The notes under the pieces were generated by a model. It had not been told where the DNA came from and did not search any database. It saw nothing but the letters and a program-made list of their open reading frames with translations. A stretch of DNA of 32,000 nucleotides from Candidatus Saccharimonadota bacterium (GTDB lineage: Bacteria > Patescibacteriota > Gracilibacteria > UBA1369 > 2-02-FULL-48-14). Within the stretch, counting starts at the first letter, position 1. The number at the start of each line of letters is the position of its first letter. Both the position numbers and the translations under genes were made by a program. The stretch is from NCBI GenBank assembly GCA_965230905.1, contig OZ246396.1, forward strand, positions 750,001 to 782,000, in the 5' to 3' direction. Below are positions 8,727 through 28,791 of the stretch, one piece after another.

Positions 8727-8728
8727 AC

Positions 8729-9625: not shown

Positions 9626-10213
9626 TTACTTCTCCTCCTTGAGCTTTTTGAATTCGCGTTGGAAGAATTTAGCGGTTTCAAGGCAGTCTTTTGCTTTTTC
9701 GTTGTGGGGTTCCAGCGCGAGCGCGGTTTCCAAAAGAGCAATGGTTTCCACAAATTGACGGTCGTTCAAGTAGCACACTGCAAGGTCACACATAATGAGC
9801 GTGTCTTGGGGAGCCATAGCCTTGGCACGTTCCAAAATCACGAGTCCGCGTCGGCGGTCTCCGCTGTGGAAAATGCTCCATCCCAAACATCGGAGGATTT
9901 CGGGGTGGTGGGGTTGTACGCGGTTGGCGAGTTCCAAGGTTTCTACGGATTTCCCAAAGTCTCCTAAAGAGGAATAAAGGAATCCGAGGAGGTAGAGAGC
10001 GTTTGGGCTATTTGGCTTGAGTTTGAGCGCGTGTTTCAGCGCCTTCATAGACTTGTCGTACTCCCGTAAACTGAGGTAGTTGTCCCCAATTTCCTCATAA
10101 GCCTCCACATACTCAAGATCCATGATGAGCATCTTGTTGGAGAGTTGGATGGCTTCTTGGTGCCGTCCAGCTAGCTTGAGGCCATCGGCCTGTTTGAGGA
10201 GGTCGTCGTACAT
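9626..10213 (-). CDS. Tetratricopeptide-repeat (TPR) protein
   Basis: 195 aa with repeated TPR-like A..Y..G..Y....A...Y..AL...P patterns (AYEEIGDNYLSLREYDKSMKALKHALKLKPNSPNALYLLGFLY..). Confidence 0.7.
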   Translation of the reverse strand: MYDDLLKQADGLKLAGRHQEAIQLSNKMLIMDLEYVEAYEEIGDNYLSLREYDKSMKALKHALKLKPNSPNALYLLGFLYSSLGDFGKSVETLELANRVQPHHPEILRCLGWSIFHSGDRRRGLVILERAKAMAPQDTLIMCDLAVCYLNDRQFVETIALLETALALEPHNEKAKDCLETAKFFQREFKKLKEEK

Positions 10214-10245
10214 GTTTATTGATTTTTATTTTTTTGTATCTAGTT

Positions 10246-10274
10246 ATTATAGCAAAAAAACCGACTTCCTTCAA
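10246..10274 (-). promoter_or_regulatory. Putative promoter of the TPR gene (TTGAAG-17-TATAAT)
   Basis: Minus strand has TTGAAG at 10274-10269, a 17-nt spacer and TATAAT at 10251-10246, 32 nt before the ATG at 10213. Confidence 0.4.
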
Positions 10275-10311
10275 GGAGTGTAGGCTTGGCATTTGAGGGG
10301 AATGTGTTGGA

Positions 10312-11187: not shown

Positions 11188-11690
11188 GCGCTGGGGCCGC
11201 CTTCTTCTATGTGAATGATGCGGGTTTTAAAATCTTCCGTTTTAGGAATGGTGACGATGAGCATGTGTTCGTGTACTCGAGCATTGATGTTTTTGCGGTC
11301 GATGTGGTCGGGGAGCACAATGGAGCGAGAAAAAGTTCCCCAAAAGAGTTCGGATACCAAGGCTGAGTTCACTTGAAGGCCTTCGATTCGCTTACGTTCG
11401 CCGCGAATGGTGAGCACGTCGTCTTGAATGGCCACTTTGATATCGGATTTCTCTACGCCGGCAATGGGGCACACAATGATCATCAAATCTTCACGCTGCA
11501 AAATGTCCACGGAAAGCTGACCTTCCTGCGCGGCTTCTGCGGCGGTGGGTGCTTTATGGCCGTAGGCACTCGCCTCTGCTCGTGGGCGCGCGCTTAATTT
11601 AACGGGCTGAGGGGCGCCCTTTTTTAAGGGGGCTCCGGCTGGCGCCTCCGCCCTGGCGTGTTTGAGTTGGCCGATTCCTACTTGGCTCAT
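11184..11690 (-). CDS. Hsp20/alpha-crystallin family small heat-shock protein
   Basis: Alpha-crystallin domain: LSVDILQREDLMIIVCPIAGVEKSDIKVAIQDDVLTIRGERK..FSRSIVLPDHIDRKNINARVHEHMLIVTIPK. Ala/Pro-rich N-terminal extension. Confidence 0.85.
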   Translation of the reverse strand: MSQVGIGQLKHARAEAPAGAPLKKGAPQPVKLSARPRAEASAYGHKAPTAAEAAQEGQLSVDILQREDLMIIVCPIAGVEKSDIKVAIQDDVLTIRGERKRIEGLQVNSALVSELFWGTFSRSIVLPDHIDRKNINARVHEHMLIVTIPKTEDFKTRIIHIEEGGPSA

Positions 11691-11704
11691 GGGATTAGTG
11701 TAAC

Positions 11705-13549
11705 TTAAGCATCTGCTTTCGCCAATTTTTTCCCTTCCAGGAGTTTAACAAACTCCTCACGGGTGAGGGTTTCGCGCTCCTTCAAGGCTTTAGCGATGTG
11801 TTCCATGTCTTTGCGGTGTTTGGTGAGGAGTTCCTTGGCCAGCTTATAGGCCTTGTCCACGAAGCCTTGAATCTCTTTGTCGATGAGGGCGGCCTTTTCT
11901 TCGGAGTAATTTTTCACGTGACCAAAGTCGCGGCCTAGGAAGACTTCGTGATTCGCTTCACCATATACAGTGGGGCCAACGGCGGCGCTCATTCCAAATT
12001 CGGTCACCATGCGGCGTGCCATTTGGGTGACTTTTTGCAGATCATTGGAGGGGCCGGTGGAAACTTGGCCGTAGAACATTTCTTCCGCCACGTATCCGCC
12101 CATGCCGGAGGCCATTTCGTGCTCGAATTTTTCTTGAGTGACCAGATGCGTGTCTTCTTCAGGCATGAACCAAGTGAGACCCAAGGCCATACCGCGAGGG
12201 ATGATGGTCACTTTGCGCAGCGGGTCGCATTGGGGGAGCAGTTGGCGCACGAGAGCATGACCCACTTCGTGATAGGCCGTGACTTCTTTTTCTTTTTCTG
12301 ACATCACATGGGATTTGCGTTCTGGTCCGATTTGAACCTTTTCCACGGACATTTCAATGTCGTGCTGAGTGATTTCTTTTTCGCTCTTGCGGGCGGCCAT
12401 GATCGCGGCTTCGTTGAGCACATTTTCTAAGTCAGCTCCGGAGAAACCAGGGGTTTGCTTGGCCACATGGCGAAGGTCGATGTTTTTCACCATGGGCTTA
12501 TTTTTGCTGTGCACTTTAAGGATGGCTTCTCGGTCGTCCATGCTGGGACTGTCCACCACCACGCGGCGGTCGAAACGGCCGGGGCGCAGCAGGGCAGGGT
12601 CGAGCACATCGGGGCGGTTGGTGGCCGCCATTACAATGACGCCGGTATTGGTTTCGAATCCGTCCATTTCGGTCAGTATCTGGTTGAGGGTTTGTTCACG
12701 TTCGTCGTGTCCTCCGCCCACTCCGGTTCCGCGTTGGCGGCCCACGGCGTCGATTTCATCCATGAAGATAATACAAGGCGCGTTGCGCTTAGCTTTTTTA
12801 AACAAGTCACGCACACGGCTGGCTCCCACTCCCACGAACATTTCTACGAATTCAGAACCGCTGATGCTGAAGAAGGGCACGTTCGCCTCACCGGCAACGG
12901 CGCGGGCAAGGAGGGTTTTTCCATTTCCTGGAGAACCCACGAGCATAACCCCTTTTGGAATTTTGGCTCCCATGGCGGTGTATTTGCTAGGGTTCTTTAA
13001 AAAGTCCACCACTTCCACGAGTTCTTCCTTGGCTTCTTTGAGTCCGGCCACGTCGTCGAAAGTCGTCTTTTCTTTTTCTTTATCGTGCAGACGTGCGTTG
13101 GATTTCCCAAAGGACATCGCTTGGTTGTTGCTGCTCGCCGCGCCGCGCATCATGAAATAGAGGAATCCAATGATCAGCATAAAAGGAATGATGGCGAGCC
13201 CGATGTTGAGCCACACACCCTTGCTGGAAGTGTCCACGACTTCAATATCAATGGAAGCCACCAAAGCGGGGTCCACGCTGTCGAGCACTTCGCTCACGGT
13301 TTCACCCGGTTCTTTGTAGGCGTATTTTTTCGTTTCATCTTTAAGCGTGTAGTCCAGGCGGCTGTCGCTCACGGCCACGGTTTCCACGTTTCCTGCTGCC
13401 ACGTCTTCTACGAATTCACTGCGGCCCACTTGTTCAATCACGGTGCGGGAATCGGAATTCCAGATTGTATAAATACCCGAAAGCAGCAGCGCCACCACGA
13501 GCAGGGTCACTAAAGGATTGGGAGATTTTCTTGGGAGCATGTTTGCCAT
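11705..13549 (-). CDS. ftsH: ATP-dependent zinc metalloprotease FtsH
   Basis: Two N-terminal TM helices, an AAA+ module ([34 protein letters not shown], second region of homology [20 protein letters not shown]) and the HEVGHAL zinc motif. Confidence 0.97.
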
Positions 13550-15974: not shown

Positions 15975-16017
15975 GCGACCTTAATTATAACGGACACACG
16001 CCGTGTCTGCACGCCAA

Positions 16018-16524
16018 ATGGATAAACCTTACGAAGCCCCCCGAGGGAGATTGTTGCCGACGCTCGTTGTATTTGTCTTCGTGCTGGGCGTACTTTACAC
16101 ATTGTTTTTGGTTTTCCAGCGCGTGAACGTGAGCGGAAACATTAAACAATTGGAAAACGAAAAAGTCGATGTGCAGGCCAAGATCGACGAACTCCGTGCG
16201 GAAGAAATTGAAGAACTCTTTGTGGCGCAAAAACTGAAAGACCTTTTGGAAGACAGCACGGTTGAATGGTCTAAGGTGGTTCGCAGTGTGCAAGATCTCA
16301 CGCCCGTGGCGGTGTTCTTAACGGCTTACACGATTGATGAAACCGGGGAAATTCAAGTGAGCGGACTGGGAGACTCCTTTGGCAGCGTGGCGGACATTAT
16401 TTCCAGCCTTCAAAAATCATCGGACTTTGCGAATGTGTTCGTTCCTTCGGTCACCGCAGGAACCACGGCCGACGGACAGCCGGTGGTGACTTTTAGTCTT
16501 AAACTTGACTACCTTCCTCAGTGA
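16018..16524 (+). CDS. pilN: PilN-like type IV pilus assembly protein
   Basis: Short cytoplasmic N-terminus, one TM helix (LLPTLVVFVFVLGVLYTLFLVF), a coiled-coil (IKQLENEKVDVQAKIDELRAEEIEEL) and a C-terminal ferredoxin-like segment. It is positioned just before pilO-pilC. ATG 16018 is preferred over the GTG at 16003. Confidence 0.6.
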   Translation: MDKPYEAPRGRLLPTLVVFVFVLGVLYTLFLVFQRVNVSGNIKQLENEKVDVQAKIDELRAEEIEELFVAQKLKDLLEDSTVEWSKVVRSVQDLTPVAVFLTAYTIDETGEIQVSGLGDSFGSVADIISSLQKSSDFANVFVPSVTAGTTADGQPVVTFSLKLDYLPQ

Positions 16525-17039
16525 AATCCAATTCTTTTTCTCAGCTCGTGTCCATTGTTCTGCTCTTCCTGATTATTGTGGGAAGTGTGGTGTTTGTGCT
16601 GCCCCTGCGTGAGAAAATCGCGGCGTTGCAGTTGACCGAGGAGACGTACAGCGGAGAACTGGCGGTCTTGGAAAGCAATTACGAAGATTTAAAAACACTT
16701 TCGGAAGAAGTGGCGACCAGCGAAACCACTCGGACTATGCTCAAGGCAGCGGTGCCGGTGGGCTACGATCAAGATGCGCTGCTTTTGGAACTTTCTGAGA
16801 TTACCGAGGAAATTGGATTTAAACTCAATGCCGTGAACTTTTCTGACACGGTGAGTGAAACGTATGGAAACAGCATCGAAATTTCTGCTAACTTTACCGG
16901 AACCTACGGGGACTTGGTTTCGTTTTTACAAGCCTTGGAAAGTGCGGACCGTTTGATGCGCGTGACGAACATGAGCATCCAAAGGACCAGCAGTGCCGCG
17001 GTGGCGTTTAATGTGAGCATTGAGGTCTATTACCAATAA
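16521..17039 (+). CDS. pilO: PilO-like type IV pilus assembly protein
   Basis: N-terminal TM helix, a coiled-coil, then DQDALLLELSEITEEIGFKLNAVNF..ANFTGTYGDLVSFLQALESADRLMRVTNMSI, which is the PilO pattern. The GTG start overlaps the pilN stop (GTGA). Confidence 0.6.
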   Translation: MKSNSFSQLVSIVLLFLIIVGSVVFVLPLREKIAALQLTEETYSGELAVLESNYEDLKTLSEEVATSETTRTMLKAAVPVGYDQDALLLELSEITEEIGFKLNAVNFSDTVSETYGNSIEISANFTGTYGDLVSFLQALESADRLMRVTNMSIQRTSSAAVAFNVSIEVYYQ

Positions 17040-17057
17040 TATTAAAATCCCCCTGTC

Positions 17058-18221
17058 ATGGAGCTTCCTTCTAAGCTGATGGAAAAATCGTCCGAGAAGG
17101 AAACTTCGGTTGTTTATGGAGTGTACAGCAGTGTGGGTCAGCCGTTTTCTGTGCGGATGAGGGACTTTTTTATAGACCGCCGAAAAGTGGGCATTAAAGA
17201 GAAATCGTATTTTTTCCATCTGCTCGCGGTGATGATCGATGCCGGGATTCCTATTATGAAGGCGCTGAAGGTGCTGTCTAAGAAAACAGAAAACCCACGC
17301 TTTGCGCGGATTATAAATACGCTGGCTTATGATGTGGAACGTGGAAAAGTGATGAGCCAATCCATGCTCAAGTTCCCCGATGTATTTAAGGATTCGGAAG
17401 TGGGAATTGTGCGCAGCGGAGAGAGCATTGGAAATTTGGGACTGCTTTTGTTCAAGCTCGCGAAGCAAACCGAGCGCACGCACACCTTGTATTTGAAAGT
17501 GCGCGGGGCTTTGATTTATCCAATCACGGTTTTGATTGCGCTGCTCATTTCCGGTGCCATTGTGGTGACGGTGGTGATTCCCCGCATCGATCAATTTTTT
17601 ACGCAGGCGAATTTTGACCTGCCTTTTTTGACTCAGGTGATTTTGAAAGGAGGAACGTTTTTTATCAACTTCATGTGGCTCTTCATTATTTTGATGGTGT
17701 TTTTAGTTTTACTGGCAACGTTTTATGCGGGAACGGAAGGTGGACGCCGGCGCATGGACATTTGGGCGCTTTCGTTTTTCTTTGTGGGCGACACCATTCG
17801 TAAACTCAATGTGGCAAAGTTCATTCAATTGCTCAGTTTGCTGGTGGAAGGTGGAGTGCCCATTCATGAGGCCATTCGCATTGCGGGTGGCGCGGTGAGT
17901 AATTCTTTATATAAGGACTTTTTTGTCACGCTGCGTAGCGGGATTGAGCGGGGAGAAAAAATTGCCGACAATTTGGCCAAGGCGCCGTTTTTGTTTCCAG
18001 AAACCGTGATCGCCATGGTTTCGGTGGGAGAGAACAGCGGGCAGCTCGGAAAAATTTCAGAAAAATTGGCCTCCCACTATGAACAAGAAGTGGAAAATTC
18101 CCTGGCGAATTTCACCACTATTTTGGAACCCATTGTGATTGTTATTGTGGGAGTGGCCGTAGGAGTATTGGCCCTCGCTTTGCTCGGGCCCATTTTCTCT
18201 CTTTCAACCTTAGTATCATGA
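17058..18221 (+). CDS. pilC: Type IV pilus platform protein PilC (GspF family)
   Basis: Two GspF-type repeats (FFHLLAVMIDAGIPIMKALKVL.. and FIQLLSLLVEGGVPIHEAIRIA..) plus the C-terminal LEPIVIVIVGVAVGVLALALLGPIFSL helix. Confidence 0.9.
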   Translation: MELPSKLMEKSSEKETSVVYGVYSSVGQPFSVRMRDFFIDRRKVGIKEKSYFFHLLAVMIDAGIPIMKALKVLSKKTENPRFARIINTLAYDVERGKVMSQSMLKFPDVFKDSEVGIVRSGESIGNLGLLLFKLAKQTERTHTLYLKVRGALIYPITVLIALLISGAIVVTVVIPRIDQFFTQANFDLPFLTQVILKGGTFFINFMWLFIILMVFLVLLATFYAGTEGGRRRMDIWALSFFFVGDTIRKLNVAKFIQLLSLLVEGGVPIHEAIRIAGGAVSNSLYKDFFVTLRSGIERGEKIADNLAKAPFLFPETVIAMVSVGENSGQLGKISEKLASHYEQEVENSLANFTTILEPIVIVIVGVAVGVLALALLGPIFSLSTLVS

Positions 18222-18808
18222 AAAAGCCACCTTCGATGATGGCGGCTCCTGGATTTACACTGCTAGAACTTCTTTTGGTGATCACCATTATTGGGGTGCT
18301 TTCGGCCACGCTGGTTTTGGATTTTGCAGGAGTGAAGCAGCGGCAGGAATTGGCGCTCATTGCGGATCAGTCTGTGGCGATGATGCAGCAGGCGCGCGGC
18401 GAAGTGGGCGGAGGAAAGGTGCGCCGTGAAACGGCGGAAGACGGAACGGTGGAGACGATTTTTTTGTGCGAGGGTGCGTATTTTGAAAAAGGCAAGGCGC
18501 CGCTTTTTGTGCGGGGCGATTATGTGGGCGGAGCTTGCGAGAACTTTGAAACGGAATCGTACGGAATGCCGAGTGGCGGCGCTTTTGCTTCTGCCATTGC
18601 TGTGGCCGAGCTGCCGGTTTCTAAGCTCTGGGTGCTTTACAGTCCGCCCGATGGAGAATTGGTTTTTTACACCGAAAATGGCGAGGCGACCACGGGCGAC
18701 GCCGTGGTTCATTTTGAGCACAAGAATGAACTGGATATGGATTTATCTGTTATCATTTCCCCCGTCACCAACTTAGCTACCTTATCCCTCGGCACCGATG
18801 AAGAATAG
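18218..18808 (+). CDS. Prepilin-type N-terminal cleavage/methylation protein (GspH/FimT-like minor pilin?)
   Basis: Class III signal MKKPPSMMAAPG|FTLLELLLVITIIGVL with Glu at +5. The ATGA overlaps the pilC stop. Confidence 0.8.
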   Translation: MKKPPSMMAAPGFTLLELLLVITIIGVLSATLVLDFAGVKQRQELALIADQSVAMMQQARGEVGGGKVRRETAEDGTVETIFLCEGAYFEKGKAPLFVRGDYVGGACENFETESYGMPSGGAFASAIAVAELPVSKLWVLYSPPDGELVFYTENGEATTGDAVVHFEHKNELDMDLSVIISPVTNLATLSLGTDEE

Positions 18809-19298
18809 CGCCCCTGGGTTTACTCTCATTGAAACCTTGATTGCCATCACCCTGATAACGGTGGTGATAAGCGCTGTAACAGGACTTATTTTGAGCACGC
18901 TGCTGGCGAATCAACGCAATCTGCACTCGCTGCAGGGCATGTATTTGGCGCAGGAAAGTTTGGAAGCCGTGCGTTTTATGCGCGACTCCAACTGGCTCCA
19001 AAATTATTCCTGGAATGGAGGTAGCCTGCTCTGGGGCAGTGATTTTGATATGGGCACGGAATCGCAGCTCAATCTTTTTTTGACGGATGAAGCCTGTCCA
19101 CCGTGTTTTGGCTTGGCGAGGTCAGCGGAGGATTCCATTGTCACCGACGACAGCGGATTCGAATACACACGTGCCCTTAGCTTCAAACCTGTTACCGACT
19201 TGCAAGACGTGGTGGAAGTCACGGCCACCGTGAGTTGGGAGGAACGCGGCATCGCCCGCAGTGTTGAACTTTCTACTTACTTAAGCGATTGGAAATGA
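18798..19298 (+). CDS. Prepilin-type N-terminal cleavage/methylation protein (minor pilin)
   Basis: MKNSAPG|FTLIETLIAITLITVVISAV with Glu at +5. The start overlaps the previous gene by 11 nt. Confidence 0.8.
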   Translation: MKNSAPGFTLIETLIAITLITVVISAVTGLILSTLLANQRNLHSLQGMYLAQESLEAVRFMRDSNWLQNYSWNGGSLLWGSDFDMGTESQLNLFLTDEACPPCFGLARSAEDSIVTDDSGFEYTRALSFKPVTDLQDVVEVTATVSWEERGIARSVELSTYLSDWK

Positions 19299-19846
19299 AA
19301 AGATCAGCCTTTACATTGCTGGAGATGATCATTGCCATCACGGTCTTCACTATTTTTATTGGCTTCGCTATTTCCACGTATTTGATGTTTCATCGCGCGG
19401 ACCAAGAAGCTTTGGCGATGCGCAGCCTGATGCTGGAAACGCAGGGGACCATGGATTTGATTTCCGATGCGGTGAAGGAGAACACCATCGATTACGCCTA
19501 CTACAACGATGGTTTGAGCTCCGACGTTTTGGCCCTGCGCAGCCCCGACGGCCAGACGGAGACGGTTTTTATTTGGGACGAGGAAGTAGAAACACTAAGC
19601 CTCTTCACCATTGATGAAAACGACGTGGCCAGCTCGCCCGTTTTGCTGCACAGTGAAACCACCCGCGTGCCCTATGTGCACTTCCGCATTTTCCCCGACA
19701 AAAATCCTTACGAAAACTCCACTGAAGAGGCCATTCAATACCAGCCCACCGTGCAAATGGAAATCACCTTCTCTATGCCGGGGCGCGTGCAAGAAGAAAT
19801 CACCGTGGACTTTCAAACCTCTATAACCAGCCGCTTCTACCAATGA
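19295..19846 (+). CDS. Prepilin-type minor pilin with Ala at the -1 position
   Basis: MKRSA|FTLLEMIIAITVFTIFIGFAI. ATG 19295 overlaps the previous stop as ATGA; the track start at 19289 is a TTG. Confidence 0.75.
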   Translation: MKRSAFTLLEMIIAITVFTIFIGFAISTYLMFHRADQEALAMRSLMLETQGTMDLISDAVKENTIDYAYYNDGLSSDVLALRSPDGQTETVFIWDEEVETLSLFTIDENDVASSPVLLHSETTRVPYVHFRIFPDKNPYENSTEEAIQYQPTVQMEITFSMPGRVQEEITVDFQTSITSRFYQ

Positions 19847-20886
19847 GAAACCGTCGTGCCAGTGCGCTGCTCCTTTCTTTCTTCATGATGACCATGCTGA
19901 TTTTGGTGAGCATTTCGGTGAGCGTTTTGGTGATTCGCGACATTGCGGCGGTGCGCACCATTGTGGGCGGCACGCAAGCTTTGTACGGGGCGGAGGGAAT
20001 GAGCGAAATTGGACTCTATGCCGTGAAAGAAAATTTGCCTGGCTACGAACCCAGCTACAGCGATTATGTGTACACCAACTCCGTTTTGGCGTCGGCAAAT
20101 CTGCACGCGCGTGAAGACATGGTGCCTTGCCTGGGCCAGGATTCCGACGGCTGGAGCGTACTCGCGCCCAACGAATCCATTCAATTGGCTTTGTTTGCGC
20201 AAACCAATGAGGGCGGCGATTTCTTAAAAAATACGTCCTTTGCGGTGGATTTTTATGTGGGGGATGACGAAGGCAAATCGCTGTATGGAGTGATGTCCAA
20301 TTTTCTCAATTCAGAAGACATTCTTCGTTGGAAAATTTTGGGACTTTATAATGAAAAAACGGAAGCGATTTCAGAATATATTCCGCTCGATACAGACAAC
20401 GCTCGTACCTCTAAGGTCAATCCCTCCGTTTTTGGCCCCGGCTCCAAGGGGGCTCCGAAGTATATGAATGCTAAATTTTATGACTCCGGTACGCCCTCCC
20501 ATTTTTATCCTGATTACCCCATTTCCACCTTTTTGGCGGATCACGATTACAGCTATTTGGTGCTCACCAACATCATTCAAGGCATCGACGATGCTAACAT
20601 TTATTATCGTTTGCGTTGGACCAGTGGTTCCAGCTCGGTAAATACCGAGCTCGACGAAGTGGTGTGTGAGTACACCGAAATCAGCAGCGTGGCGGATGTG
20701 GAGAACGGCAGCGCGCGTCAGCTCTTAAAAACCTTGGTGAGGGAAGGCGAAAATCTGCCCGTTTTTGACTTTGTTTTGTATCATACAGCGGATGACGATG
20801 CAGAAAAAAACTTTCCAGGTGTGGGTGGAAAGATTACGAATTTTCCATTCGCGGAGCTATTCAATCCGCTTCCTTCATTGGAATAA
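19843..20886 (+). CDS. PilX-like pilus-associated protein (347 aa)
   Basis: The N-terminus RRASALLLSFFMMTMLILVSISVSVLV..IVGGTQALYGAEG resembles the PilX N-terminal domain pattern (hydrophobic helix without the FTLxE motif). The ATGA overlaps the preceding pilin gene. Confidence 0.5.
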   Translation: MRNRRASALLLSFFMMTMLILVSISVSVLVIRDIAAVRTIVGGTQALYGAEGMSEIGLYAVKENLPGYEPSYSDYVYTNSVLASANLHAREDMVPCLGQDSDGWSVLAPNESIQLALFAQTNEGGDFLKNTSFAVDFYVGDDEGKSLYGVMSNFLNSEDILRWKILGLYNEKTEAISEYIPLDTDNARTSKVNPSVFGPGSKGAPKYMNAKFYDSGTPSHFYPDYPISTFLADHDYSYLVLTNIIQGIDDANIYYRLRWTSGSSSVNTELDEVVCEYTEISSVADVENGSARQLLKTLVREGENLPVFDFVLYHTADDDAEKNFPGVGGKITNFPFAELFNPLPSLE

Positions 20887-20926: not shown

Positions 20927-22381
20927 ATGGCCAAATTTTATCTTACCAATGCGATTGCTTACGTGAATGCGGGTCCGCACATGGGGCACGCGCTGGAGGC
21001 GGTTCAAGGGGACGCGCTGACGCGTTACCACCGTATGATTGGCGACGACGTGCGGTTTTTGGTGGGAACGGACGAGCACGGCAGTAAAATTCAGCAAGTG
21101 GCTAAGGAAAAAAACGTGGAACCGCAGGCTTTGGCGGATATGAACGCTGCGCTTTTTTTGGACTTCCACAAGGCGGTGAACGCGGCGAATGATGACTTTG
21201 TTCGCACCACGAGCGCGCGTCATGAAGCGGCAGCTAAAAAAATGTGGTTGGCTTTGGAAGCCGCTGGAAAACTCTACGATAAAGAATACGAAGGTAAGTA
21301 CTGCTCGGGTTGCGAGGCCTTTATTTTGGATAAGGATTTGGTGGAGGGTAAATGCAGCATTCACCTGCGTGAACCGGAAGTGCTGAAGGAGAAAAACATC
21401 TTCTTCAAGCTCTCCGATTATTCCGATGCGATTAAGGAAAAAGTGAAGAGCGGGGAGCTTTTGATTCGTCCGCAATCCCGAAAGAATGAATTTTTGTCGC
21501 TGCTGGAAGAAGGTCTGCAGGATGTGAGTTTTTCACGGCCCAAGAAAACTTTGGCGTGGGGGATTGATGTGCCTGGTCATGACGATCAAGTGATGTACGT
21601 GTGGTGTGACGCACTCACGAACTACATTTCGGCGGTTGGTTACGAGGACGATGAGGAACAATTTAAAAAATTGTGGCCGGCGGATGTGCATTTGATTGGA
21701 AAGGACATCATTCGGTTTCACTGCGGAATCTGGATCGGGATGCTGATGGCCGCCGGCCTAGAACTGCCCAAGGCAGTGTACGTGCACGGGTTCCTCACCA
21801 GTGAAGGGCAGAAAATGAGCAAATCGCTTGGCAATGTGGTGGACCCCATGGAGCTGCTGCGCGACTGGGGCGTGGACCCGGTTCGTTACTATTTGCTGCG
21901 TGAAGTGCCCAGCGACGAAGACGGCGATTTTTCACGCGAACGTTTTGCGATTGTGTACAAAGATGAACTGCAAAACACCATTGGAAACTTGCTTCGCCGC
22001 AGCGTAACTCTTTCTACAAAAAACTTTGAAAGCCGCCGACCGGTGGGCGACTCCGCTTTGAAGGGGGCCATTGATAAAGCGTGGAAGGGCTACCACGAAG
22101 GCTTCACTTCTTTTGATGTGAAAGGAGCTTTGGAATCGATGATTGTATTGGCGCGGGAGGGGAATTTGTACGTAGACCAACAGAAGCCTTGGGAACTGGC
22201 GAAGACGGATTTGGTGCGATTGGAAGTGGTGATGGGAAACCTGATGGATTTGTGCAAAGCCTTGGGCGAAATGCTGGTGCCCGTTATTCCTGAAGCGGCA
22301 CAAAAAATCCTGGACCAAGTGGGTGGTGAAACGATTGTGCTGGGGGATGCGCTGTTTCCAGCCAGGGAAGAAAGGAAGTAA
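20927..22381 (+). CDS. metG: Methionine--tRNA ligase
   Basis: The class I HIGH region (AYVNAGPHMGHALE) and the KMSKS motif (GQKMSKSLGN) are present. Start MAKFYLTNAIAY at 20927 is preferred over the track start at 20906. Confidence 0.95.
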   Translation: MAKFYLTNAIAYVNAGPHMGHALEAVQGDALTRYHRMIGDDVRFLVGTDEHGSKIQQVAKEKNVEPQALADMNAALFLDFHKAVNAANDDFVRTTSARHEAAAKKMWLALEAAGKLYDKEYEGKYCSGCEAFILDKDLVEGKCSIHLREPEVLKEKNIFFKLSDYSDAIKEKVKSGELLIRPQSRKNEFLSLLEEGLQDVSFSRPKKTLAWGIDVPGHDDQVMYVWCDALTNYISAVGYEDDEEQFKKLWPADVHLIGKDIIRFHCGIWIGMLMAAGLELPKAVYVHGFLTSEGQKMSKSLGNVVDPMELLRDWGVDPVRYYLLREVPSDEDGDFSRERFAIVYKDELQNTIGNLLRRSVTLSTKNFESRRPVGDSALKGAIDKAWKGYHEGFTSFDVKGALESMIVLAREGNLYVDQQKPWELAKTDLVRLEVVMGNLMDLCKALGEMLVPVIPEAAQKILDQVGGETIVLGDALFPAREERK

Positions 22382-22404
22382 TAAGCGAACGTGAATTATA
22401 GAAA

Positions 22405-22436
22405 GAAAAGAGAGAACTCATGAGTTCTCTCTTTTC
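22405..22436. terminator. Bidirectional terminator (perfect 16+16 palindrome) between convergent metG and the pilin-module operon
   Basis: GAAAAGAGAGAACTCA|TGAGTTCTCTCTTTTC is a perfect inverted repeat with A-run and T-run flanks. Confidence 0.7.
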
Positions 22437-22466
22437 GCTTCCAGTGAGCTTTTACTTCCTTTCGAA

Positions 22467-22823
22467 TTATTCAGCAACCATTGCCTCAGCAAGGTCCGCT
22501 GCGGTCACACCGCTGGCGGTGAGGGCTTCGGAACAAGTGGCTTCGAGGTGCGTGCGGGCTGCCTCAGAAACTTGGTTGAGATCTTCGGTTCCTCGGATTT
22601 CTGCGAGGTAGGTGTCGATGTCTTCTGGAGTGTCGTAACCGTATTTGTTCATGATTTCACCGGTCTGGGCTTCAATGTCTTCCAAGGCAACGTTTTCGTC
22701 GAACAAAAGACAAGCGGTTTCTGCCATAGCTTTCCCGGTGTCCTCAGCTTTGTTGCCGGATCCTCCGCAAGCGGTTAAAAATAGCGCTCCTGTAAGGAAA
22801 CTGGCTAGTAAAGGTCTGAACAT
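22467..22823 (-). CDS. Small lipoprotein (119 aa)
   Basis: From the internal ATG at 22823: MFRPLLASFLTGALFLTAC|GGSGNK, a signal peptide with lipobox LTAC. The track's longer N-terminus overlaps the upstream gene and lacks signal character. Confidence 0.6.
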   Translation of the reverse strand: MFRPLLASFLTGALFLTACGGSGNKAEDTGKAMAETACLLFDENVALEDIEAQTGEIMNKYGYDTPEDIDTYLAEIRGTEDLNQVSEAARTHLEATCSEALTASGVTAADLAEAMVAE

Positions 22824-22866
22824 GCTTTTAAGGTTAGAGATAAGGGCGTGCGCGGACACAGTACGC

Positions 22867-23283
22867 TTAAACCGCTGACTCGTCCACCTGGAGTACAATC
22901 TGCAAAATACCCTGCGCAATGGCGTAGGAAAGCAGAATAGTGAGCAGTCCCACCAGAGACCAAAACATTCCACGTTTTCCTTTTTCGATTTTTTCGTCCT
23001 TACCAAAGGCGAAGATGTAGTTGTAGCTGGCCCAGAGCAAAAAGACGATGGTTAGGGCGCCCGCAAAAAGCAGCACCTGGCTGACCAAATTTCCCACGAA
23101 CATGATTAGGGTTTGGGTGGCTGCACTTTCCGGGTGATCGTTGTCCACCGCTTCTTCCGCCGTGATGGTGGGGAGATTGCTGGGGCGCAGATTGTCGTCC
23201 AACTGAATGACGGCCAAGGCGGCGTCCGCGCAAAAGGAAAACAGGATAGCGGCCAAAACGGTGAGGAGGAGTTTTTTAATCAT
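22867..23283 (-). CDS. VirB2/TrbC-like 'T4SS pilin' module protein (139 aa)
   Basis: From the ATG at 23283: signal peptide MIKKLLLTVLAAILFSFCADAALA, an acidic spacer, then TM1-loop-TM2 (LIMFVGNLVSQVLLFAGALTIVFLLWASYNYIFAFGKDEKIEKGKRGMFWSLVGLLTILLSYAIAQGIL). 8-nt overlap with the upstream gene. Confidence 0.6.
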   Translation of the reverse strand: MIKKLLLTVLAAILFSFCADAALAVIQLDDNLRPSNLPTITAEEAVDNDHPESAATQTLIMFVGNLVSQVLLFAGALTIVFLLWASYNYIFAFGKDEKIEKGKRGMFWSLVGLLTILLSYAIAQGILQIVLQVDESAV

Positions 23284-24178
23284 TGGAGTCTTCACGGTTA
23301 TTGAATACCTCGTCGATTTCCGTATCTTCATTGTCGGTGAGGTTGAGGTTGGCGATACCGTATACGATGGCGTATCCCAGCGAAAGCAGCACCAAGGCCA
23401 CCCCTGAGTAAATGATGATGCTTTTGGCTTTGGTGGTGGCTTCTTCGTTTCCACGGCCAATCACCAGCAGCACGCCTCCGTACATGAAGGCAATGAAGAT
23501 GAGGAAGGCGGTTACGTAGAGCGCGTTGGTTATGACGGCCGGCACGATTTCTCCTAAAAAGTCTCCGCCCGGTAGCGAAACGCGTTTGTCTGGGTCCTGA
23601 TCTTCAATAATGGTTTGTTGGCTGGGGAGCAGGATATCTAGGTCGTCTTCAATGTCCACGGCGTAGGCCGATGGGATGCTGAAGAAGGCGGTGTCGGCGT
23701 CGTGGTCGTCGTTGTTTGGAAGGGCCACGGACACCACAATGGAAACGATTCCGTAAGAAAGGATGGAGAGCAAAAATCCTATGATTCCGTAGCGCAGACT
23801 GGTTTTGGCACGGTTGATTTTGTCTTCATTTCCGTAGGCGGTGAGCATTTGAATGGAGGCCACCAAAATACCTATGAAGGTTGCGATTCCAAAGAGACCA
23901 ATCACAATGTTGATTCCCCTGGGAATGGTTTCGTTGAGCAGATAATTTTGTGTGTCGTAACCGCGTTCACCCACATCGGGGCTTGGCAAAAAGGAGGGGA
24001 GGGGAATGACGGGTTGGGTCACCTGACCTGCAGGAGATTCGTCGCCGGTTTCTACGGTGCCTTCTTCATCGCTTGCGTCATCTGTTTCCCATTCGTAGGC
24101 AAAGGTCGTGACTGCGGTGGAGCACAGCAAGCTTATTCCCAGCACTAATCCGAAAAGAGTTTTGCGTAGAGTTTTCAT
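23276..24178 (-). CDS. Tandem double VirB2/TrbC-like pilin-module protein (300 aa)
   Basis: Signal peptide, then two complete TM-loop-TM modules: ..IGLFGIATFIGILVASIQMLTAYGNEDKINRAKTSLRYGIIGFLLSILSYGIVSIV.. and ..NALYVTAFLIFIAFMYGGVLLVIGRGNEEATTKAKSIIIYSGVALVLLSLGYAIVYGI.. They are separated by an acidic linker. Confidence 0.6.
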   Translation of the reverse strand: MKTLRKTLFGLVLGISLLCSTAVTTFAYEWETDDASDEEGTVETGDESPAGQVTQPVIPLPSFLPSPDVGERGYDTQNYLLNETIPRGINIVIGLFGIATFIGILVASIQMLTAYGNEDKINRAKTSLRYGIIGFLLSILSYGIVSIVVSVALPNNDDHDADTAFFSIPSAYAVDIEDDLDILLPSQQTIIEDQDPDKRVSLPGGDFLGEIVPAVITNALYVTAFLIFIAFMYGGVLLVIGRGNEEATTKAKSIIIYSGVALVLLSLGYAIVYGIANLNLTDNEDTEIDEVFNNREDSND

Positions 24179-25119
24179 CCGAAGAAGCCAGGGTTAATGG
24201 TGTACAAAATGAGTCCTGAGAGGAAGAGTAAAACAATTCCAGAAAGGGCTTGGAGGATTTTGTTTTTGGATTCACTGATGTCTCCGCTCACTCCCGAAAC
24301 CGAGATTTTTATTCCCTGAAAAACCATGGTGAAAACCGCAATAGAACCTACGGCAAAGGCTCCAAAGGTGAAGACTTGCTTCACCATGAGTTTGACCACA
24401 CCGATTCCACTGGATCCAATCACCCACTGGCGTTTGTCGCAGTTTTCGGCCACGGCATTGCACTTATCAAAACCGCTGCCGCCCTCATCCGTGCTTGTGT
24501 ATATGGTTCTTGTATCGTCGCAGGTTATGACCTTTCCGCTTGTCTCATCCACTTCTCCGGCAAAACAGCAAAGTCCCGCGTACACGGTGATGATTTTGTT
24601 GTCCTCCAGGTCTACGTCCGGGGCAATCACTTCCGTGATTTCCGTAACAATGAGTCCGTCGGCACTGCAATCGCCTTTTTCCAGGTAACCGCTGTAGTTG
24701 TTGGGTTGGCCACAAGTGTTAGAGTCCTTTCCTTCGTCCGTGCTGAACTCAAGCTCGTACATTAAGGTTTCCAATTCATTGGCTTGTTTGTATTGGTCCT
24801 TTTTGTATTCTTCGGTAGATCCATAAGGCAATTGGATTCCAAAAGGGCACATCTTATTGGGAGGATCGATGTCGTTTTCCTTCTCCGCGGCAGTGGCGGG
24901 AGTGGAGGTGGATTCTGCTGCTTCTCTTTCATCTGCTGCTGTTTCTGCTGCAGCCATCTCTTCTTCGGAGACTTCGTCACAATTGAGTCCTGTATATACA
25001 CAGCTTTCTGCGTCGGAGGCGTATTCATCGGTCGGGTCTGAATCCACCGCCAAAGTCACAAACGGAGCCCAGAAGGTCGTGAGGTAGGAAACGAGAGCGA
25101 AGGCGAGGAATTTGCGCAT
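24175..25119 (-). CDS. Secreted Cys-rich domain fused to a C-terminal VirB2/TrbC-like pilin module (314 aa)
   Basis: Signal peptide, an acidic/Ala-rich region and a domain of about 170 aa with 10 Cys. The C-terminus is VFTFGAFAVGSIAVFTMVFQGIKISVSGVSGDISESKNKILQALSGIVLLFLSGLILYTI. The ATGA overlaps the next gene. Confidence 0.55.
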   Translation of the reverse strand: MRKFLAFALVSYLTTFWAPFVTLAVDSDPTDEYASDAESCVYTGLNCDEVSEEEMAAAETAADEREAAESTSTPATAAEKENDIDPPNKMCPFGIQLPYGSTEEYKKDQYKQANELETLMYELEFSTDEGKDSNTCGQPNNYSGYLEKGDCSADGLIVTEITEVIAPDVDLEDNKIITVYAGLCCFAGEVDETSGKVITCDDTRTIYTSTDEGGSGFDKCNAVAENCDKRQWVIGSSGIGVVKLMVKQVFTFGAFAVGSIAVFTMVFQGIKISVSGVSGDISESKNKILQALSGIVLLFLSGLILYTINPGFFG

Positions 25120-25128
25120 AGCGTGGGG

Positions 25129-25554
25129 TCAGTAGAAGAAAGATTGAATAAGGGCGGCTATGAAGTAGGAGAAAAAGGCGAGCACCATCCCAATAACGGA
25201 TTGAGTGAGTATGCTTTTGGCGCGGTCGATTTTGCTTTCATCCCCGGCGGCGGTGACCATCATGAACCCTCCAATCATAATGGTGATGAAGGTGAAGGTG
25301 GCGATGAGCAGGGTGAGCACATTGATCACACGGAGGATGAGGGCGGCTGCTACGGACGTGTTATTTTCTTTTGCGTCGTCTTGAATGTTTTCGTAAATGT
25401 CGGTGCTTTCATTGGTGCCGTTGTCGTTGGTATCGATGTCCAGGATCTCGGAAACGTCAAAACCGCTGTAGCCATTATCCGCAAGGGCAAGCGGCGAATG
25501 CAGTAAACCACACGTTGTGAGTATAAAGGCCAGTGAGGCGAGATTTTTTTTCAT
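25129..25554 (-). CDS. VirB2/TrbC-like 'T4SS pilin' module protein (141 aa)
   Basis: Signal peptide MKKNLASLAFILTTCGLLHSPLALA, an acidic Asn/Asp-rich spacer, then LRVINVLTLLIATFTFITIMIGGFMMVTAAGDESKIDRAKSILTQSVIGMVLAFFSYFIAALI. It starts 2 nt after the ATPase stop. Confidence 0.65.
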   Translation of the reverse strand: MKKNLASLAFILTTCGLLHSPLALADNGYSGFDVSEILDIDTNDNGTNESTDIYENIQDDAKENNTSVAAALILRVINVLTLLIATFTFITIMIGGFMMVTAAGDESKIDRAKSILTQSVIGMVLAFFSYFIAALIQSFFY

Positions 25555-25556
25555 TT

Positions 25557-27647
25557 TTAGCGGAGACAGGGAGGCTCGGCTCTGCCGAGTGGGCGCGAAT
25601 CTCCTTTATTATACCTGATTTTCAGCTTTTCTTCAACCAGGAGAACCGGGCGGCCGTAGCGTTCTTGCGAGCTTCGTTTAATCTGGGAAGCGTCGTTTTG
25701 TGCGGGAAACTTGGGCTTGTGAACGTCCATGCGGAAAAGTGGGAGTGGACTTTGGCGATGGAGCAGCTTGCTGTAAGCCTGAAAGGGGGCGAGTTGGGTG
25801 AGGTCTTCTTCCAAAAGGCCGAGGGAGGGCGCGAGGATTTGGGCATCGGCGTAACTGGTGCGGAAACAGAGCAGTGAGCCTGCGTTGCCGAGCACCGCAT
25901 CTTGGATTTCGGGCGGCAGCTGGGTGAGGTACTGGTTGGCGAGGGTGAGGGCAAGGCCGTATTTGCGGGATTCGGCCAGCATACTGAGTAGGGTTTTGGT
26001 GGTGAAATTTTGAAATTCATCCACGGTGAGGCACACCGTGCTGCGCTGTTCGGGCGGCAATTCAGCGCGGCGGAGCAGGGTGGATTGAATCATGGAAATA
26101 AAAATCATGCCCAACATGGCGCTGCAGTCTTCGCCGAGTTTTCCTTTAGACAGCGAGACGAGGACAATTTTGTTTTCCGCGAAGGCGTTTTCGAAGGAGA
26201 ATTTGCTGCGGGGTTGGCCGAAAATATTTCGGAGCAGCGGGAGGGTGAGAAGCGGACCCACTTTATTGAGTATCGGCGCGATGTGTTCCTGGCGGGTCTT
26301 TAAATCCTGGGCCAAAAATTCCTGCTCAAAAAAACGGTGGAGTTCAAAATCTTGCGTGCAGTCCAGCAGACGTTGGCAAAAAGATGCGTTGGTGAGCAGG
26401 CGCGGCAGATCGAGCAGCGTGGTGTTGGGCGCGAGCGTGAGGAGCAGCAGCGCGTTGCGGAGAATGTATTCCAGGCGGGGCCCCCAGCTGCCTTTGGCCA
26501 GCACTTCAAACATTTCCACCAGGGCGGAGGTTTTTAGGTTGGCGTTTTCGCCCGTTTGCAGCTCCAGTGGATTGATGGCCAGCGGAAAATCGGTGAGGCT
26601 GGGGTCTAGGACGATGAGGTCTTTATGGCGCTGCGGCGGGGTGAGGCGCAGGGCGTCTTCAATCAGGTCACCGTGGGGATCCAGGACTACGATGGCGCGG
26701 TTTTCTTGGCAATCTTCTTGGAAAAAATTCAGCAGCACGGTGGATTTTCCCATCCCAGTTTTCCCGATGAGATAAAGGTGGCGCTTGCGATCCTCTTCTT
26801 CAAGTGTGAGCTCGGTTGGGGCGGGCAGGTAGGCGGTGGGTTCGGTGTGGAGATGCGCGGCTTGTTCCTTGGCGCTGGGCAGCGAGAGCAGGGTGGCGAG
26901 TTCTTCCGCACTAAAAATCAGCGGGCTGGGTTTGCGGCTGAGGCGGACTTCGCCCAGGTAGGGCAGGGTGAAGCCGTGAATAAAATCGCTGAACGGGTGG
27001 CTGAGTGCGAGGGTGCATTTGAAAAGTGGACGCGAGAGTTTGTCGAGCACCGCGCGGCGCGGATCTTCGCGTTCGTGCAGCGATTCCATTTGCTCCTGCG
27101 GTGGCGCTTTGAGCGGCGTGTGCAGTAGGGATTTGCGGAGGAGCGGGCCGAGAAAACGGCGGAGTTTAAAGCTGAACCAGGCTTTGCTTTCCCACTGGTC
27201 GAAACGGCGCTCGGGTTCAAAATAGGGCTTCTTGGCTTTTTTGAGTATACGTTCACGGGTGCGGTCGCGTAGCGGGGTGAAGTGTAGGTGGATGAAGGCG
27301 CCGGGCGTTTTTGCGAGCTGCGGCAGCAGTGTATCCAGCGGGGCGATGTGGGTTTTTTGGATGCGGTCTTCGAATTGCGAATAACGTTTTATAGGGAGCA
27401 GCGGACCTTTGCTTTGGCGGACGAAGTGGTGGGGCGTTTGTGGTGTGAGGGTGCTTGGAAGGAGGCGGCTGCCAAGGAGGTGCGCGCTCAGGTCTTCGCT
27501 GCAGAGCAGTTCCACCTTGCCCTCCTTTTCGCGGATGAAAAAGTCGATGGGGTGGGGATGTTTTTGCAGGGTGTGCAGCCAGTGTTCCAGCAGACGCGGA
27601 GAATATTCGCGCGTTTCGCAGAGCCGAAGTTCAAAAAGAGTGTGCAT
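25557..27647 (-). CDS. P-loop ATPase of the T4SS coupling-protein / HerA-FtsK type (VirD4/TraD/TraG-like), no N-terminal TM anchor
   Basis: Walker A LIGKTGMGKST, then VVLDPHGDL, Walker B CLTVDEFQNF, and AESRKYGLALTLANQYLTQL..LGNAGSLLCFR (the typical RKYG..Q..QL tail of TraD/VirD4/VirB4-like ATPases). The N-terminal ~290 aa are unassigned and end in FSAEELATLLSLPS. Confidence 0.7.
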   Translation of the reverse strand: MHTLFELRLCETREYSPRLLEHWLHTLQKHPHPIDFFIREKEGKVELLCSEDLSAHLLGSRLLPSTLTPQTPHHFVRQSKGPLLPIKRYSQFEDRIQKTHIAPLDTLLPQLAKTPGAFIHLHFTPLRDRTRERILKKAKKPYFEPERRFDQWESKAWFSFKLRRFLGPLLRKSLLHTPLKAPPQEQMESLHEREDPRRAVLDKLSRPLFKCTLALSHPFSDFIHGFTLPYLGEVRLSRKPSPLIFSAEELATLLSLPSAKEQAAHLHTEPTAYLPAPTELTLEEEDRKRHLYLIGKTGMGKSTVLLNFFQEDCQENRAIVVLDPHGDLIEDALRLTPPQRHKDLIVLDPSLTDFPLAINPLELQTGENANLKTSALVEMFEVLAKGSWGPRLEYILRNALLLLTLAPNTTLLDLPRLLTNASFCQRLLDCTQDFELHRFFEQEFLAQDLKTRQEHIAPILNKVGPLLTLPLLRNIFGQPRSKFSFENAFAENKIVLVSLSKGKLGEDCSAMLGMIFISMIQSTLLRRAELPPEQRSTVCLTVDEFQNFTTKTLLSMLAESRKYGLALTLANQYLTQLPPEIQDAVLGNAGSLLCFRTSYADAQILAPSLGLLEEDLTQLAPFQAYSKLLHRQSPLPLFRMDVHKPKFPAQNDASQIKRSSQERYGRPVLLVEEKLKIRYNKGDSRPLGRAEPPCLR

Positions 27648-27753
27648 TTCTTAATGCTAGCTTGGGGTGGTGGGATTTGGGAAATCGCGGCGAGGGCTTT
27701 AATCTGGAAAAATGCGTTGTTGGAAGGCTGACAACAGGTCACTATTTATAGCC

Positions 27754-28791
27754 TTATTGAGCTTTATCGAGGCTCTTAGGGTCGAAGTAGGTTTTGGAAT
27801 TGGCGGTCAGGGCTAGCTTGCCGGAGCGGAGTTTTTCTACGATTTCGTAGAGGATGCGGCGGGCTTCGTCGAGGGTGTTGATTTGTACGACTTGGGCGCG
27901 GTACTCGCTGGCTCCGTCGAAGCCGCGGAGGAGTTGTACAAAGTGTTTGCGCATTTCCTTGATGCCGCGTTCTTCGCCCTTCGATTCCACACAGAGTTCG
28001 GCGTGGCGCAAGTAGGTTGGCATTTTTTCTTCAAAAGTTTGCGGCGGCGTGTAGTCCTCGCCATTAAACGCAGCGGCGATTTCCGCCATCAGCCAGGGGT
28101 TGCCCATGGTTCCGCGGCCCACCATCACGCCGTCCAGATTGCCCAGTTTCGCGAGGGCATCGGCCACGCTCTTCACGTCGCCATTCCCAATCACCGGTAT
28201 GCCCACATTCCGCTTCACTTCGTAAATGGGTTCCCAGTCCGCGCGGCCCATGTACATCTGCTTCGCCGTGCGTCCGTGGATGCTGAGCAGCGAAGCGCCT
28301 GCGCTTTCCATATCTTTACAAAATTGCACAAACCAAGGCAGATCCAGTTTGTCGGAACCGATTCGGGTTTTCACGGACACGGGAATTTTGCAGGCCTTCG
28401 CCACGGCTTCCACAATTTCTGCTGCGCGGCAGGGGTTTTTCAGGAGGGCGCTTCCATGGTCGCTGCTCACCACTTTTTTGGCGGGACAACCCATGTTGAT
28501 GTCGATGGCGTCAATGCCCATGGCTTCGATTCGTTTCGCAGCTTCTGCAAAGTTCGCCGGCTTCTTTCCAAAAATCTGCGCCACCAGCGGGCGTTCTTCG
28601 TCCGGATTAAAATCCAGCTGTTTTAGAGTCATTTTGCTGTCGTACACAATTCCGTCGGCGCTGGTGAATTCGGTAAAACAAATCACGCGCGGCTCGATTC
28701 CTTTAATCAGCTGCCGGTAAGCGGTGTCCGTGTAGCCGGCCATAGGGGCCAGCGCCAGGATTGGTCGTTTTGGGTCTTTCCAGGAGAACAT
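27754..28791 (-). CDS. dus: tRNA-dihydrouridine synthase (Dus family)
   Basis: LAPMAGYTDTAYRQL, AIDINMGCPAKKVV (catalytic Cys) and LSIHGRT..GNGDV are Dus family motifs. Confidence 0.9.
   Translation of the reverse strand: MFSWKDPKRPILALAPMAGYTDTAYRQLIKGIEPRVICFTEFTSADGIVYDSKMTLKQLDFNPDEERPLVAQIFGKKPANFAEAAKRIEAMGIDAIDINMGCPAKKVVSSDHGSALLKNPCRAAEIVEAVAKACKIPVSVKTRIGSDKLDLPWFVQFCKDMESAGASLLSIHGRTAKQMYMGRADWEPIYEVKRNVGIPVIGNGDVKSVADALAKLGNLDGVMVGRGTMGNPWLMAEIAAAFNGEDYTPPQTFEEKMPTYLRHAELCVESKGEERGIKEMRKHFVQLLRGFDGASEYRAQVVQINTLDEARRILYEIVEKLRSGKLALTANSKTYFDPKSLDKAQ

Follow-up and report, generated by a model that had tools for sequence, protein, structure and literature searches.

Patescibacteria carry chromosomal, relaxase-less type IV secretion systems (T4SSs) of the monoderm kind, with arrays of divergent PF18895/VirB2-like pilins. 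Their homologues of the type IV coupling protein (T4CP) lie mostly away from virB4, and in Gracilibacteria the components are scattered. A survey of the phylum found VirB4 in 2,417 of 3,035 assemblies and in 18 of 20 classes (~20% of the assemblies being without it), 441 arrays of 2-11 divergent VirB2-like genes, and 5,713 T4CP homologues, of which just 148 were encoded close to virB4 (PMC12102498). For Gracilibacteria, the same survey reported that TrsD and VirB3 are rarely encoded near virB4 and that VirB6 is undetectable, the components being dispersed. The T4SS genes of Southlakia epibionticum (SEML1_0006-0019) comprise an essential cluster like Gram-positive conjugation systems, without a recognisable coupling protein or relaxase, plus a series of essential pilin genes (PMC10633639). 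A 2025 review singled out the systems of Patescibacteria as the sole T4SSs of monoderms that are likely to produce pili of the conjugative type (PMC12857230). In a preprint of 2026, a cultured Patescibacterium was described as joined to its host by tubular structures that may derive from a T4SS, and uptake of host RNA was proposed (bioRxiv 10.64898/2026.06.21.733656). Here we analyze a minus-strand operon at positions 22467-27647 of a 32,000-nucleotide stretch of DNA (the window) from a genome named Candidatus Saccharimonadota bacterium (contig OZ246396.1, positions 750,001-782,000). The operon encodes a T4CP-like ATPase, four pilin-like proteins (pil1 to pil4) and a small lipoprotein.

The kind of system represented by this operon is known, and the new element is the ATPase-pilin operon together with the fusion of ATPase and pilin in related genomes. 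An initial annotation, made from the sequence alone, had correctly stated that such pilins are described from genomes of the candidate phyla radiation (PMC10633639, PMC12102498, PMC12857230). Its further suggestion of an undescribed apparatus goes too far, given that relaxase-less chromosomal T4SSs with arrays of 2-11 pilins have already been published for Patescibacteria. In contrast to these published systems, the pilin array of the window shares an operon with a T4CP-like ATPase and is fused to it in relatives. It also consists of a fixed set of four orthologous genes that includes a tandem-hairpin form and a form with a Cys-rich ectodomain. Moreover, no VirB4, VirB3, VirB6 or hydrolase gene is present in the ~50 kb inspected, i.e. 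the window and ~10 kb on each side (contig positions 970,453-1,021,181 of a 1.307-Mb contig). This contig (ENA ERZ1292638 NODE_1; 1,307,106 bp; also at NCBI as a Patescibacteria metagenome-assembled genome) encodes a protein, P0130, that is 100% identical to pil4, which places the module near its position 1.0 Mb. Neither the ATPase-pilin operon or fusion nor the fixed four-gene pilin set is mentioned in the Patescibacteria T4SS literature that we compared; the portion of the PMC12102498 supplement considered here holds no rows for this genome or for Peregrinibacteria. Our preferred reading, to which we assign a probability of about 60%, is that the module is a lineage-specific arrangement of Patescibacteria-type (monoderm, MPF-FATA-derived) T4SS components, with the core encoded elsewhere in the genome.

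The first gene of the operon (25557-27647) encodes the ATPase of 696 aa, which carries the NCBI name 'type IV secretion system DNA-binding domain-containing protein' (MEK9159410.1). In Pfam profile searches, it matched TrwB_AAD_bind with 41 bits over residues 280-610 (cutoff 20.5) and DUF87 with 32.9 bits (cutoff 23.2), and scored just under the cutoffs of T4SS-DNA_transf (19.7 vs 20.1 bits) and TraG-D_C (17.7 vs 22 bits). Matches to the NCBIfam models of TraD, VirD4 and CedD were weak; that to CedD (26.6 bits, cutoff 600, confined to the P-loop region) was the only NCBIfam similarity to the archaeal Ced system. The protein also matched the PADLOC models mad8 (47.7 bits) and HerA (34.8 bits or less) and the PHROGs family phrog_5156 (144.6 bits). 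When a profile of 68 homologues was compared with the sequences in the PDB, TrwB was the best solved relative. The Walker A motif (GKTGMGKS, residues 295-302) and residues D543-E544 of the Walker B motif (DEFQ, residues 543-546) are invariant across these 68 homologues. In the AlphaFold (AF2) model of the ATPase (pLDDT 93.6), a RecA-like domain is interrupted by an all-alpha insertion at residues ~369-490. TrwB was again the best match when this model was searched against the PDB with Foldseek (E 4e-13, TM-score normalized to the target 0.63-0.66), with DotL, Cag-beta, VirB4 and HerA behind it in both TM-score and rmsd. Approximately 425 of the ~426 residues of TrwB were aligned, at a sequence identity of only ~15%. 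The Pfam scores, the rank of TrwB in the profile search and the superposition of the model on TrwB thus place the ATPase in the coupling protein family.

Canonical T4CPs (TrwB of R388, VirD4, TraD, DotL, Cag-beta) likewise have both Walker motifs and an all-alpha domain set into the nucleotide-binding domain, but they begin with an N-terminal two-helix membrane domain. In the window ATPase, Kyte-Doolittle analysis detected no transmembrane (TM) segment and no hydrophobic stretch of 19 aa or more, and the AlphaFold model is without a TM helix. Residues ~1-280 instead form a soluble alpha/beta domain common to DUF8128-type paralogues. It is homologous to the N-terminus of proteins annotated as DUF8128 (PF26449), a link based on the invariant residues P85, P103, K203 and E249 in an alignment of the family (alignment A1). 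Thus, the ATPase is a TrwB/VirD4-family (T4CP-like) protein without the usual N-terminal membrane anchor of the family. A further difference is that canonical T4CPs go with a relaxase and/or a VirB4-based T4SS, neither of which was found near the window ATPase in the inspected region.

The ATPase gene is followed by the genes for pil1 (25129-25554; 141 aa), pil2 (24175-25119; 314 aa), pil3 (23276-24178; 300 aa) and pil4 (22867-23283; 138 aa from the ATG of MIKKLLL), all on the minus strand. Signal peptides and topology were derived from hydropathy, from A-x-A-type motifs read off the sequences and from an AF2 model, rather than with a dedicated predictor. Each of the four proteins starts with a signal-peptide-like segment and an A-x-A-type cleavage motif, and hydropathy indicates hydrophobic-loop-hydrophobic hairpins, one each in pil1, pil2 and pil4 and two in pil3. 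In pil1, an acidic linker, predicted to be extracellular, connects the signal peptide to a single TM-loop-TM hairpin (loop AAGDESKIDRAKS). pil2 has a ~220-aa Cys-rich ectodomain (10 Cys) between its signal peptide and a C-terminal hairpin (loop VSGDISESKNKI), and we infer at most an adhesin or tip role for this protein. pil3 contains two tandem hairpins after the signal peptide (loops AYGNEDKINRAKT and GRGNEEATTKAKS), and pil4 has one (loop AFGKDEKIEKGKR), its AF2 model (pLDDT 74) showing a signal helix and a helical hairpin formed by residues 51-90 and 96-136. The five paralogous hairpins are mutually 20-36% identical and have in common a short, basic loop, G-[DN]-E-x-K-[IV]-x-[KR]-[AG]-K, in which the G and K are invariant in all five modules in an alignment covering four genomes.

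Comparison with the Pfam family PF18895 (T4SS_pilin; cutoff 26.6 bits) gave 36.2 bits for pil3, over two stretches, and 30.8 bits for pil4. pil1 scored 25.7 bits, 0.9 bit below the cutoff, and the match of pil2 was weak (13.5 bits), yet its hairpin still aligns with the other four modules and its orthologue in the related locus L004 has a precomputed weak PF18895 match. PF18895 is matched by 64 of the 65 proteins in the pil4 family (alignment A3), 9 of the 65 having an additional match to TrbC/VirB2 (PF04956; best E 4e-6). The pilins were also scored against the Mbov_0395 pilin-like family of Mycoplasma integrative conjugative elements (NF045849; cutoff 40), whose members are likewise small two-TM proteins of a monoderm MPF-FATA-type system. 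All were below the cutoff (pil3 34, pil4 25.7 and pil1 17.7 bits), and, in contrast to the window genes, the Mbov_0395 family is found on mobile elements beside VirB4 (Mbov_0397). By profile match and predicted topology, the small proteins appear to be VirB2/TrbC-like members of the PF18895 T4SS_pilin family. The initial annotation had described a soluble 696-aa P-loop ATPase of VirD4/TraD type, and five TM-loop-TM modules of TrbC/VirB2 type in four signal-peptide genes. This description agrees with the hydropathy, model and profile data given above, and all five loop motifs that it quoted are present.

The genes are closely spaced, with successive gaps of 2, 9, -4, -8 and 43 nt from the ATPase gene to the lipoprotein gene; both gene coordinates and gaps are exactly those of the initial annotation, which had left the co-occurrence of the ATPase and pilin genes to be checked. 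They occur in the same order, dus-ATPase-pil1-pil2-pil3-pil4-(lipoprotein)-metG with type IV pilus (T4P) genes beyond metG, in 8 of 8 related lineages (the window, equivalent to L009, and L001, L002, L004, L007, L014/L096, L094 and L095/L097). Orthologues of pil1 are present in all related loci. ATPase identity over these lineages ranges from 82% down to 47%, and ATPase homologues at 43-90% identity come from metagenome-assembled genomes labelled Gracilibacteria or Peregrinibacteria. The module keeps its place between dus and metG even where ATPase identity is as low as 47%, which points to vertical inheritance. We conclude that the operon is chromosomal and vertically inherited in a Patescibacterium of the Gracilibacteria/Peregrinibacteria type. 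Across the clade, the pilins have diverged to 38-77% identity (44-73% for pil3 orthologues; 38-58% for those of pil2, the N-terminus of which is variable), with the spacing still being 2 nt or overlapping.

In at least five separate protein clusters defined at 90% identity (P0010, P0033, P0037, P0046 and P0057), the ATPase and pil1 form a single open reading frame (ORF). The fused proteins are 50-72% identical to the window ATPase and keep the Met and signal sequence of pil1 at the junction. In L002, the fusion (10001-12481) has no stop codon between the two parts; in L007 (7192-8322), ATPase and pil1 are in the same frame with the same junction, the assembly being frameshift-ridden. Through fusion to pil1, some relatives thus gain C-terminal TM segments on the ATPase. 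This arrangement is topologically consistent, with a cytoplasmic ATPase, a signal-anchor helix and a hairpin whose positive loop is inside. A signal peptidase cut at the junction, if kept, would leave the ATPase with a C-terminal membrane anchor. Since synteny in this clade is strong in general, gene order alone is weak evidence for a joint function, and it is the fusions that carry most weight.

Other explanations for the unusual ORFs were considered and rejected. Read-through of TGA does not account for the fusions, as the L002 junction contains no stop codon of any kind. An alternative genetic code was dismissed for the split genes of L007, where frame switches point to indel errors instead. 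In the window, TGA serves as a stop codon, so that the standard bacterial code applies. A 763-aa gene adjoining two pilin genes in L008, considered as a candidate ATPase, does not encode an ATPase.

On our preferred reading, the pilins would be exported by Sec and their signal peptides cleaved, leaving hairpins in the membrane with both ends outside and the conserved basic loop on the cytoplasmic side. The ATPase, which is probably hexameric, would be recruited to the membrane via pil1 or the hairpin loops, a link that the fusion proteins would make covalent. ATP might then power the extraction of pilins and their polymerisation into a tube of the VirB2 type; alternatively, it might be spent on moving a macromolecule (nucleic acid or protein) into or out of the tube. 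pil2, with its Cys-rich ectodomain, would be the candidate subunit for host-cell contact. The core VirB4/VirB3/TrsD machinery would most probably be encoded elsewhere in the 1.3-Mb genome, as published for the class. Because no relaxase gene is found in the inspected ~50 kb, its function would lie in interaction with the host or in the exchange of macromolecules, and not in conjugation.

Several points weigh against this reading. In canonical systems the pilin is handled by VirB4 and not by the coupling protein, and for this reason we know of no experimental precedent for a T4CP-pilin partnership. Synteny is strong across the clade, dus, the ribonucleotide reductase (RNR) genes, metG and the T4P genes being conserved as well. 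A Foldseek search with the pil4 model returned generic helical hairpins only (all E ≥0.8) and no solved pilin, and a hairpin profile searched against PDB sequences gave no VirB2 or TraA, only chance matches to glycine-receptor TM segments. As these comparisons with solved pilins are uninformative, the assignment of the small proteins rests on profiles and topology. The missing core components, to which TrsD and a peptidoglycan hydrolase must be added, are likewise not encoded in the inspected region. Finally, the T4CP homologue of Southlakia was reported to be non-essential, and its pilins essential (PMC12102498, citing PMC10633639), which argues against an obligatory T4CP-pilin link throughout the phylum.

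As the initial annotation had it, the 32-kb window is devoid of VirB4, VirB6, VirB8-11, relaxase and mobile-element genes, and the module is flanked by dus and metG. Nor is there a canonical T4SS immediately outside the window, which had been named as a possibility. The inspected region contains housekeeping genes, including those for SecA, FtsH, FtsK, RNR, queA and tRNA synthetases, together with a partial T4P operon and a HicAB pair. The few unannotated proteins encoded there have neither a P-loop nor multiple TM helices.

The absence of further T4SS genes from ~50 kb of a single-contig genome raises the alternative of a minimal filament or translocon that is complete in itself, in which the T4CP-family ATPase takes the role of VirB4 and VirB4, VirB6 and VirB3 are missing from the genome. 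The tight translational coupling and the recurrent ATPase-pilin fusions would fit this alternative, as would the grouping of the pilin-linked ATPases in a distinct long-branch clade. A compact precedent exists in archaeal Ced/Ted DNA import, which combines a membrane ATPase with the VirB2-like pilins CedA1/CedA2; CedB is a VirB4/HerA-like protein with a membrane anchor, and CedA is polytopic and VirB6-like. Like the window module, Ced/Ted is chromosomal, non-conjugative and compact, with one ATPase of the HerA/VirB4/T4CP superfamily and small VirB2-like hairpin proteins, and it is a proposed mover of nucleic acids. It differs in having membrane-anchored CedB and polytopic CedA, the window ATPase being without an anchor. 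The survey, which also cites the Ced/Ted systems, can be read both ways: VirB6 is absent from Gracilibacteria and ~20% of Patescibacteria assemblies lack VirB4, but VirB4 is present in the large majority of assemblies and in 18 of 20 classes, and the Gracilibacteria genes are dispersed, not absent (PMC12102498). Moreover, the absence of the core was seen over only ~50 kb of the 1.307-Mb contig.

A homologous ATPase, moreover, co-occurs with VirB4 at a distant locus, L024 (1-21167; GTDB contig CAZQTD010000001.1). There, the ATPase, which again has no TM segment, is encoded within a full T4SS cluster together with VirB4 (P-loop_TraG, 94.9 bits), a PrgI/VirB3-domain protein, a TrbL/VirB6-like protein, an M23 peptidase and six tandem PF18895 pilins. 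This was the only Patescibacteria VirB4 among the loci examined, and the cluster shows that the ATPase family is part of VirB4-based T4SSs in some Patescibacteria at least. The cluster also encodes a 1149-aa protein without an assigned family. Note that L024 is labelled 'uncultured Gammaproteobacteria', yet its ATPase groups with Microgenomates-type loci in a rough tree, so that the label may be wrong. Taking these points together, we regard a self-contained machine as unlikely. Its most specific form is rather improbable: a pilin-anchored coupling-family ATPase, not VirB4, as the motor of a VirB2 filament, with the five pilin modules making a self-sufficient epibiont-host tube for nucleic acid or protein with no other T4SS core.

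A different possibility is that synteny does not reflect joint function, the ATPase being a stand-alone DUF8128-type translocase with a cytoplasmic or unrelated role and the pilins serving a distant VirB4 machine. Patescibacteria genomes contain approximately two stand-alone T4CP-like translocases each, and most ATPases homologous to that of the window stand alone among housekeeping genes (79 loci). Among GTDB species representatives, we found 80 loci with relatives of the ATPase, and only the orthologous locus L014 has the pilin array. At the 79 non-orthologous T4CP-like loci (30-44% identity), none had an adjacent PF18895-like gene and only two, L024 being one, had such a gene within 10 kb. 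Two more ATPase paralogues that were examined individually also lie among housekeeping genes. The non-essential T4CP homologue of Southlakia and the generally very conserved gene order of the clade agree with a separation of roles, as do the related ATPases of Bacillus phages, with no adjoining pilin in the one locus inspected. What speaks against it are the in-frame ATPase-pil1 fusions and the persistence of 2-nt or overlapping spacing while the pilins diverged. In addition, the pilin-linked ATPases form a subfamily of their own, a long-branch clade apart from the DUF8128-type paralogues of the same class in a rough neighbour-joining tree. We therefore consider it distinctly unlikely that the ATPase and the pilins are functionally unconnected.

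Two observations concern these distant homologues. In many other Patescibacteria, the homologue of the N-terminal domain of the ATPase is a separate ORF of ~420-600 codons (stop-to-stop) just upstream of the ATPase ORF (L020, L028, L031, L032, L036, L041, L047-L051, L056, L060, L063, L068, L070, L072, L076, L077 and L084). Either two genes encode the same protein there, or the split has arisen repeatedly; the upstream ORFs matched no Pfam family in our local copy, which misses DUF8128 even in pre-annotated proteins. Large Bacillus/Lysinibacillus phages (phage G gp156, JL, SP-10, Carmen17 gp15, i.e. L098 3050-5188, and others) encode 700-900-aa proteins that share the overall fold of the window ATPase. 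The Bacillus phage proteins, including phage G gp156 and JL (phrog_5156), resemble the ATPase model in fold (Foldseek E 4e-32 to 7e-35, TM-score normalized to the query up to 0.70), part of the N-terminal region included, but differ in sequence (~23% identity) and in their phage-genome context, and no pilin-like neighbour is annotated in the single phage locus inspected.

Another reading, in which the module would be either what remains of an integrated conjugative element or an anti-phage defence system based on a HerA/mad8-like ATPase, is highly improbable: the mad8, HerA and phrog_5156 matches would fit, but PADLOC matches are limited to the ATPase, with none for the five neighbouring proteins, neither an integrase or relaxase nor any defence partner such as a methyltransferase or nuclease was found nearby, the GC content of the module (0.49-0.56) is not markedly atypical compared with 0.41-0.55 elsewhere in the window, the position between dus and metG is long conserved, and TrwB, with the all-alpha domain included, is the best structural match. 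Readings as a defence system or as being of phage origin were rejected on genomic context.

The last gene of the operon (22467-22823, minus strand) encodes the lipoprotein of 118 aa (from the ATG of MFRPLL), as initially annotated, with the lipobox L-T-A-C. It had no Pfam match and no significant match in NCBIfam, PADLOC or PHROGs. The gene is present in L001, L004, L014 and L094-L097 (47-90% identity) and absent in L002 and L007, both of low GC, where pil4 abuts metG. Since it is missing in two related lineages, the lipoprotein is a peripheral and not a universal part of the module. Between its gene and the convergent metG lies a perfect, loopless 16+16 inverted repeat, GAAAAGAGAGAACTCA/TGAGTTCTCTCTTTTC (22405-22436, no strand assigned), followed by a T-rich tail with a T-run, the palindromic terminator of the initial annotation. 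In a pattern scan of positions 22300-28000, it was by far the longest terminator-like stem (14 pairs counted), the total number of terminator-like sites in this interval being not above that in shuffled controls. The repeat is probably a bidirectional intrinsic terminator common to the module and metG.

Past metG lie pilN/O/C and pseudopilin genes. This T4P block (16003-20886, plus strand) comprises pilN, pilO, pilC, three pseudopilins with an N-methyl motif and a protein of 347 aa whose single TM segment is N-terminal; pilM, pilB and pilT were not found in the window. The initial annotation had pointed to two filament systems lying side by side. The T4P block and metG indeed keep their place beside the module in all relatives, but this association may merely reflect the general synteny of the clade.

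Further features of the region lie outside the module. An RNase P RNA of bacterial class A (Rfam RF00010; matched over the full length of the model with 133.7 bits) at 8330-8727 on the minus strand fills an otherwise gene-free gap between the sugar transferase and tetratricopeptide-repeat (TPR) genes. A HicB-HicA toxin-antitoxin pair is located ~7 kb past the low-coordinate end of the window (L013 19051-19501; ERZ1292638 NODE_1 ~973 kb), and an HTH_3 gene and a 134-aa gene of unassigned family lie between the genes for SecA and a 615-aa ACT-domain protein.

Patescibacteria rely on other cells; only a few of their systems have been shown to be essential for growth as epibionts, and the T4SS-like genes are one of these. 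If VirB4 is encoded elsewhere in the genomes that carry the module, the present findings would be a useful but incremental addition to the description of Patescibacteria T4SSs of 2023-2025. If these genomes lack VirB4, the module would be the smallest known T4SS-derived filament machine, one in which a coupling protein would have taken over pilus biogenesis. An ATPase tied to pilins by operon and by fusion leads to a testable hypothesis as to which ATPase touches the pilins, namely that this contact may be made via their conserved cytoplasmic loop.

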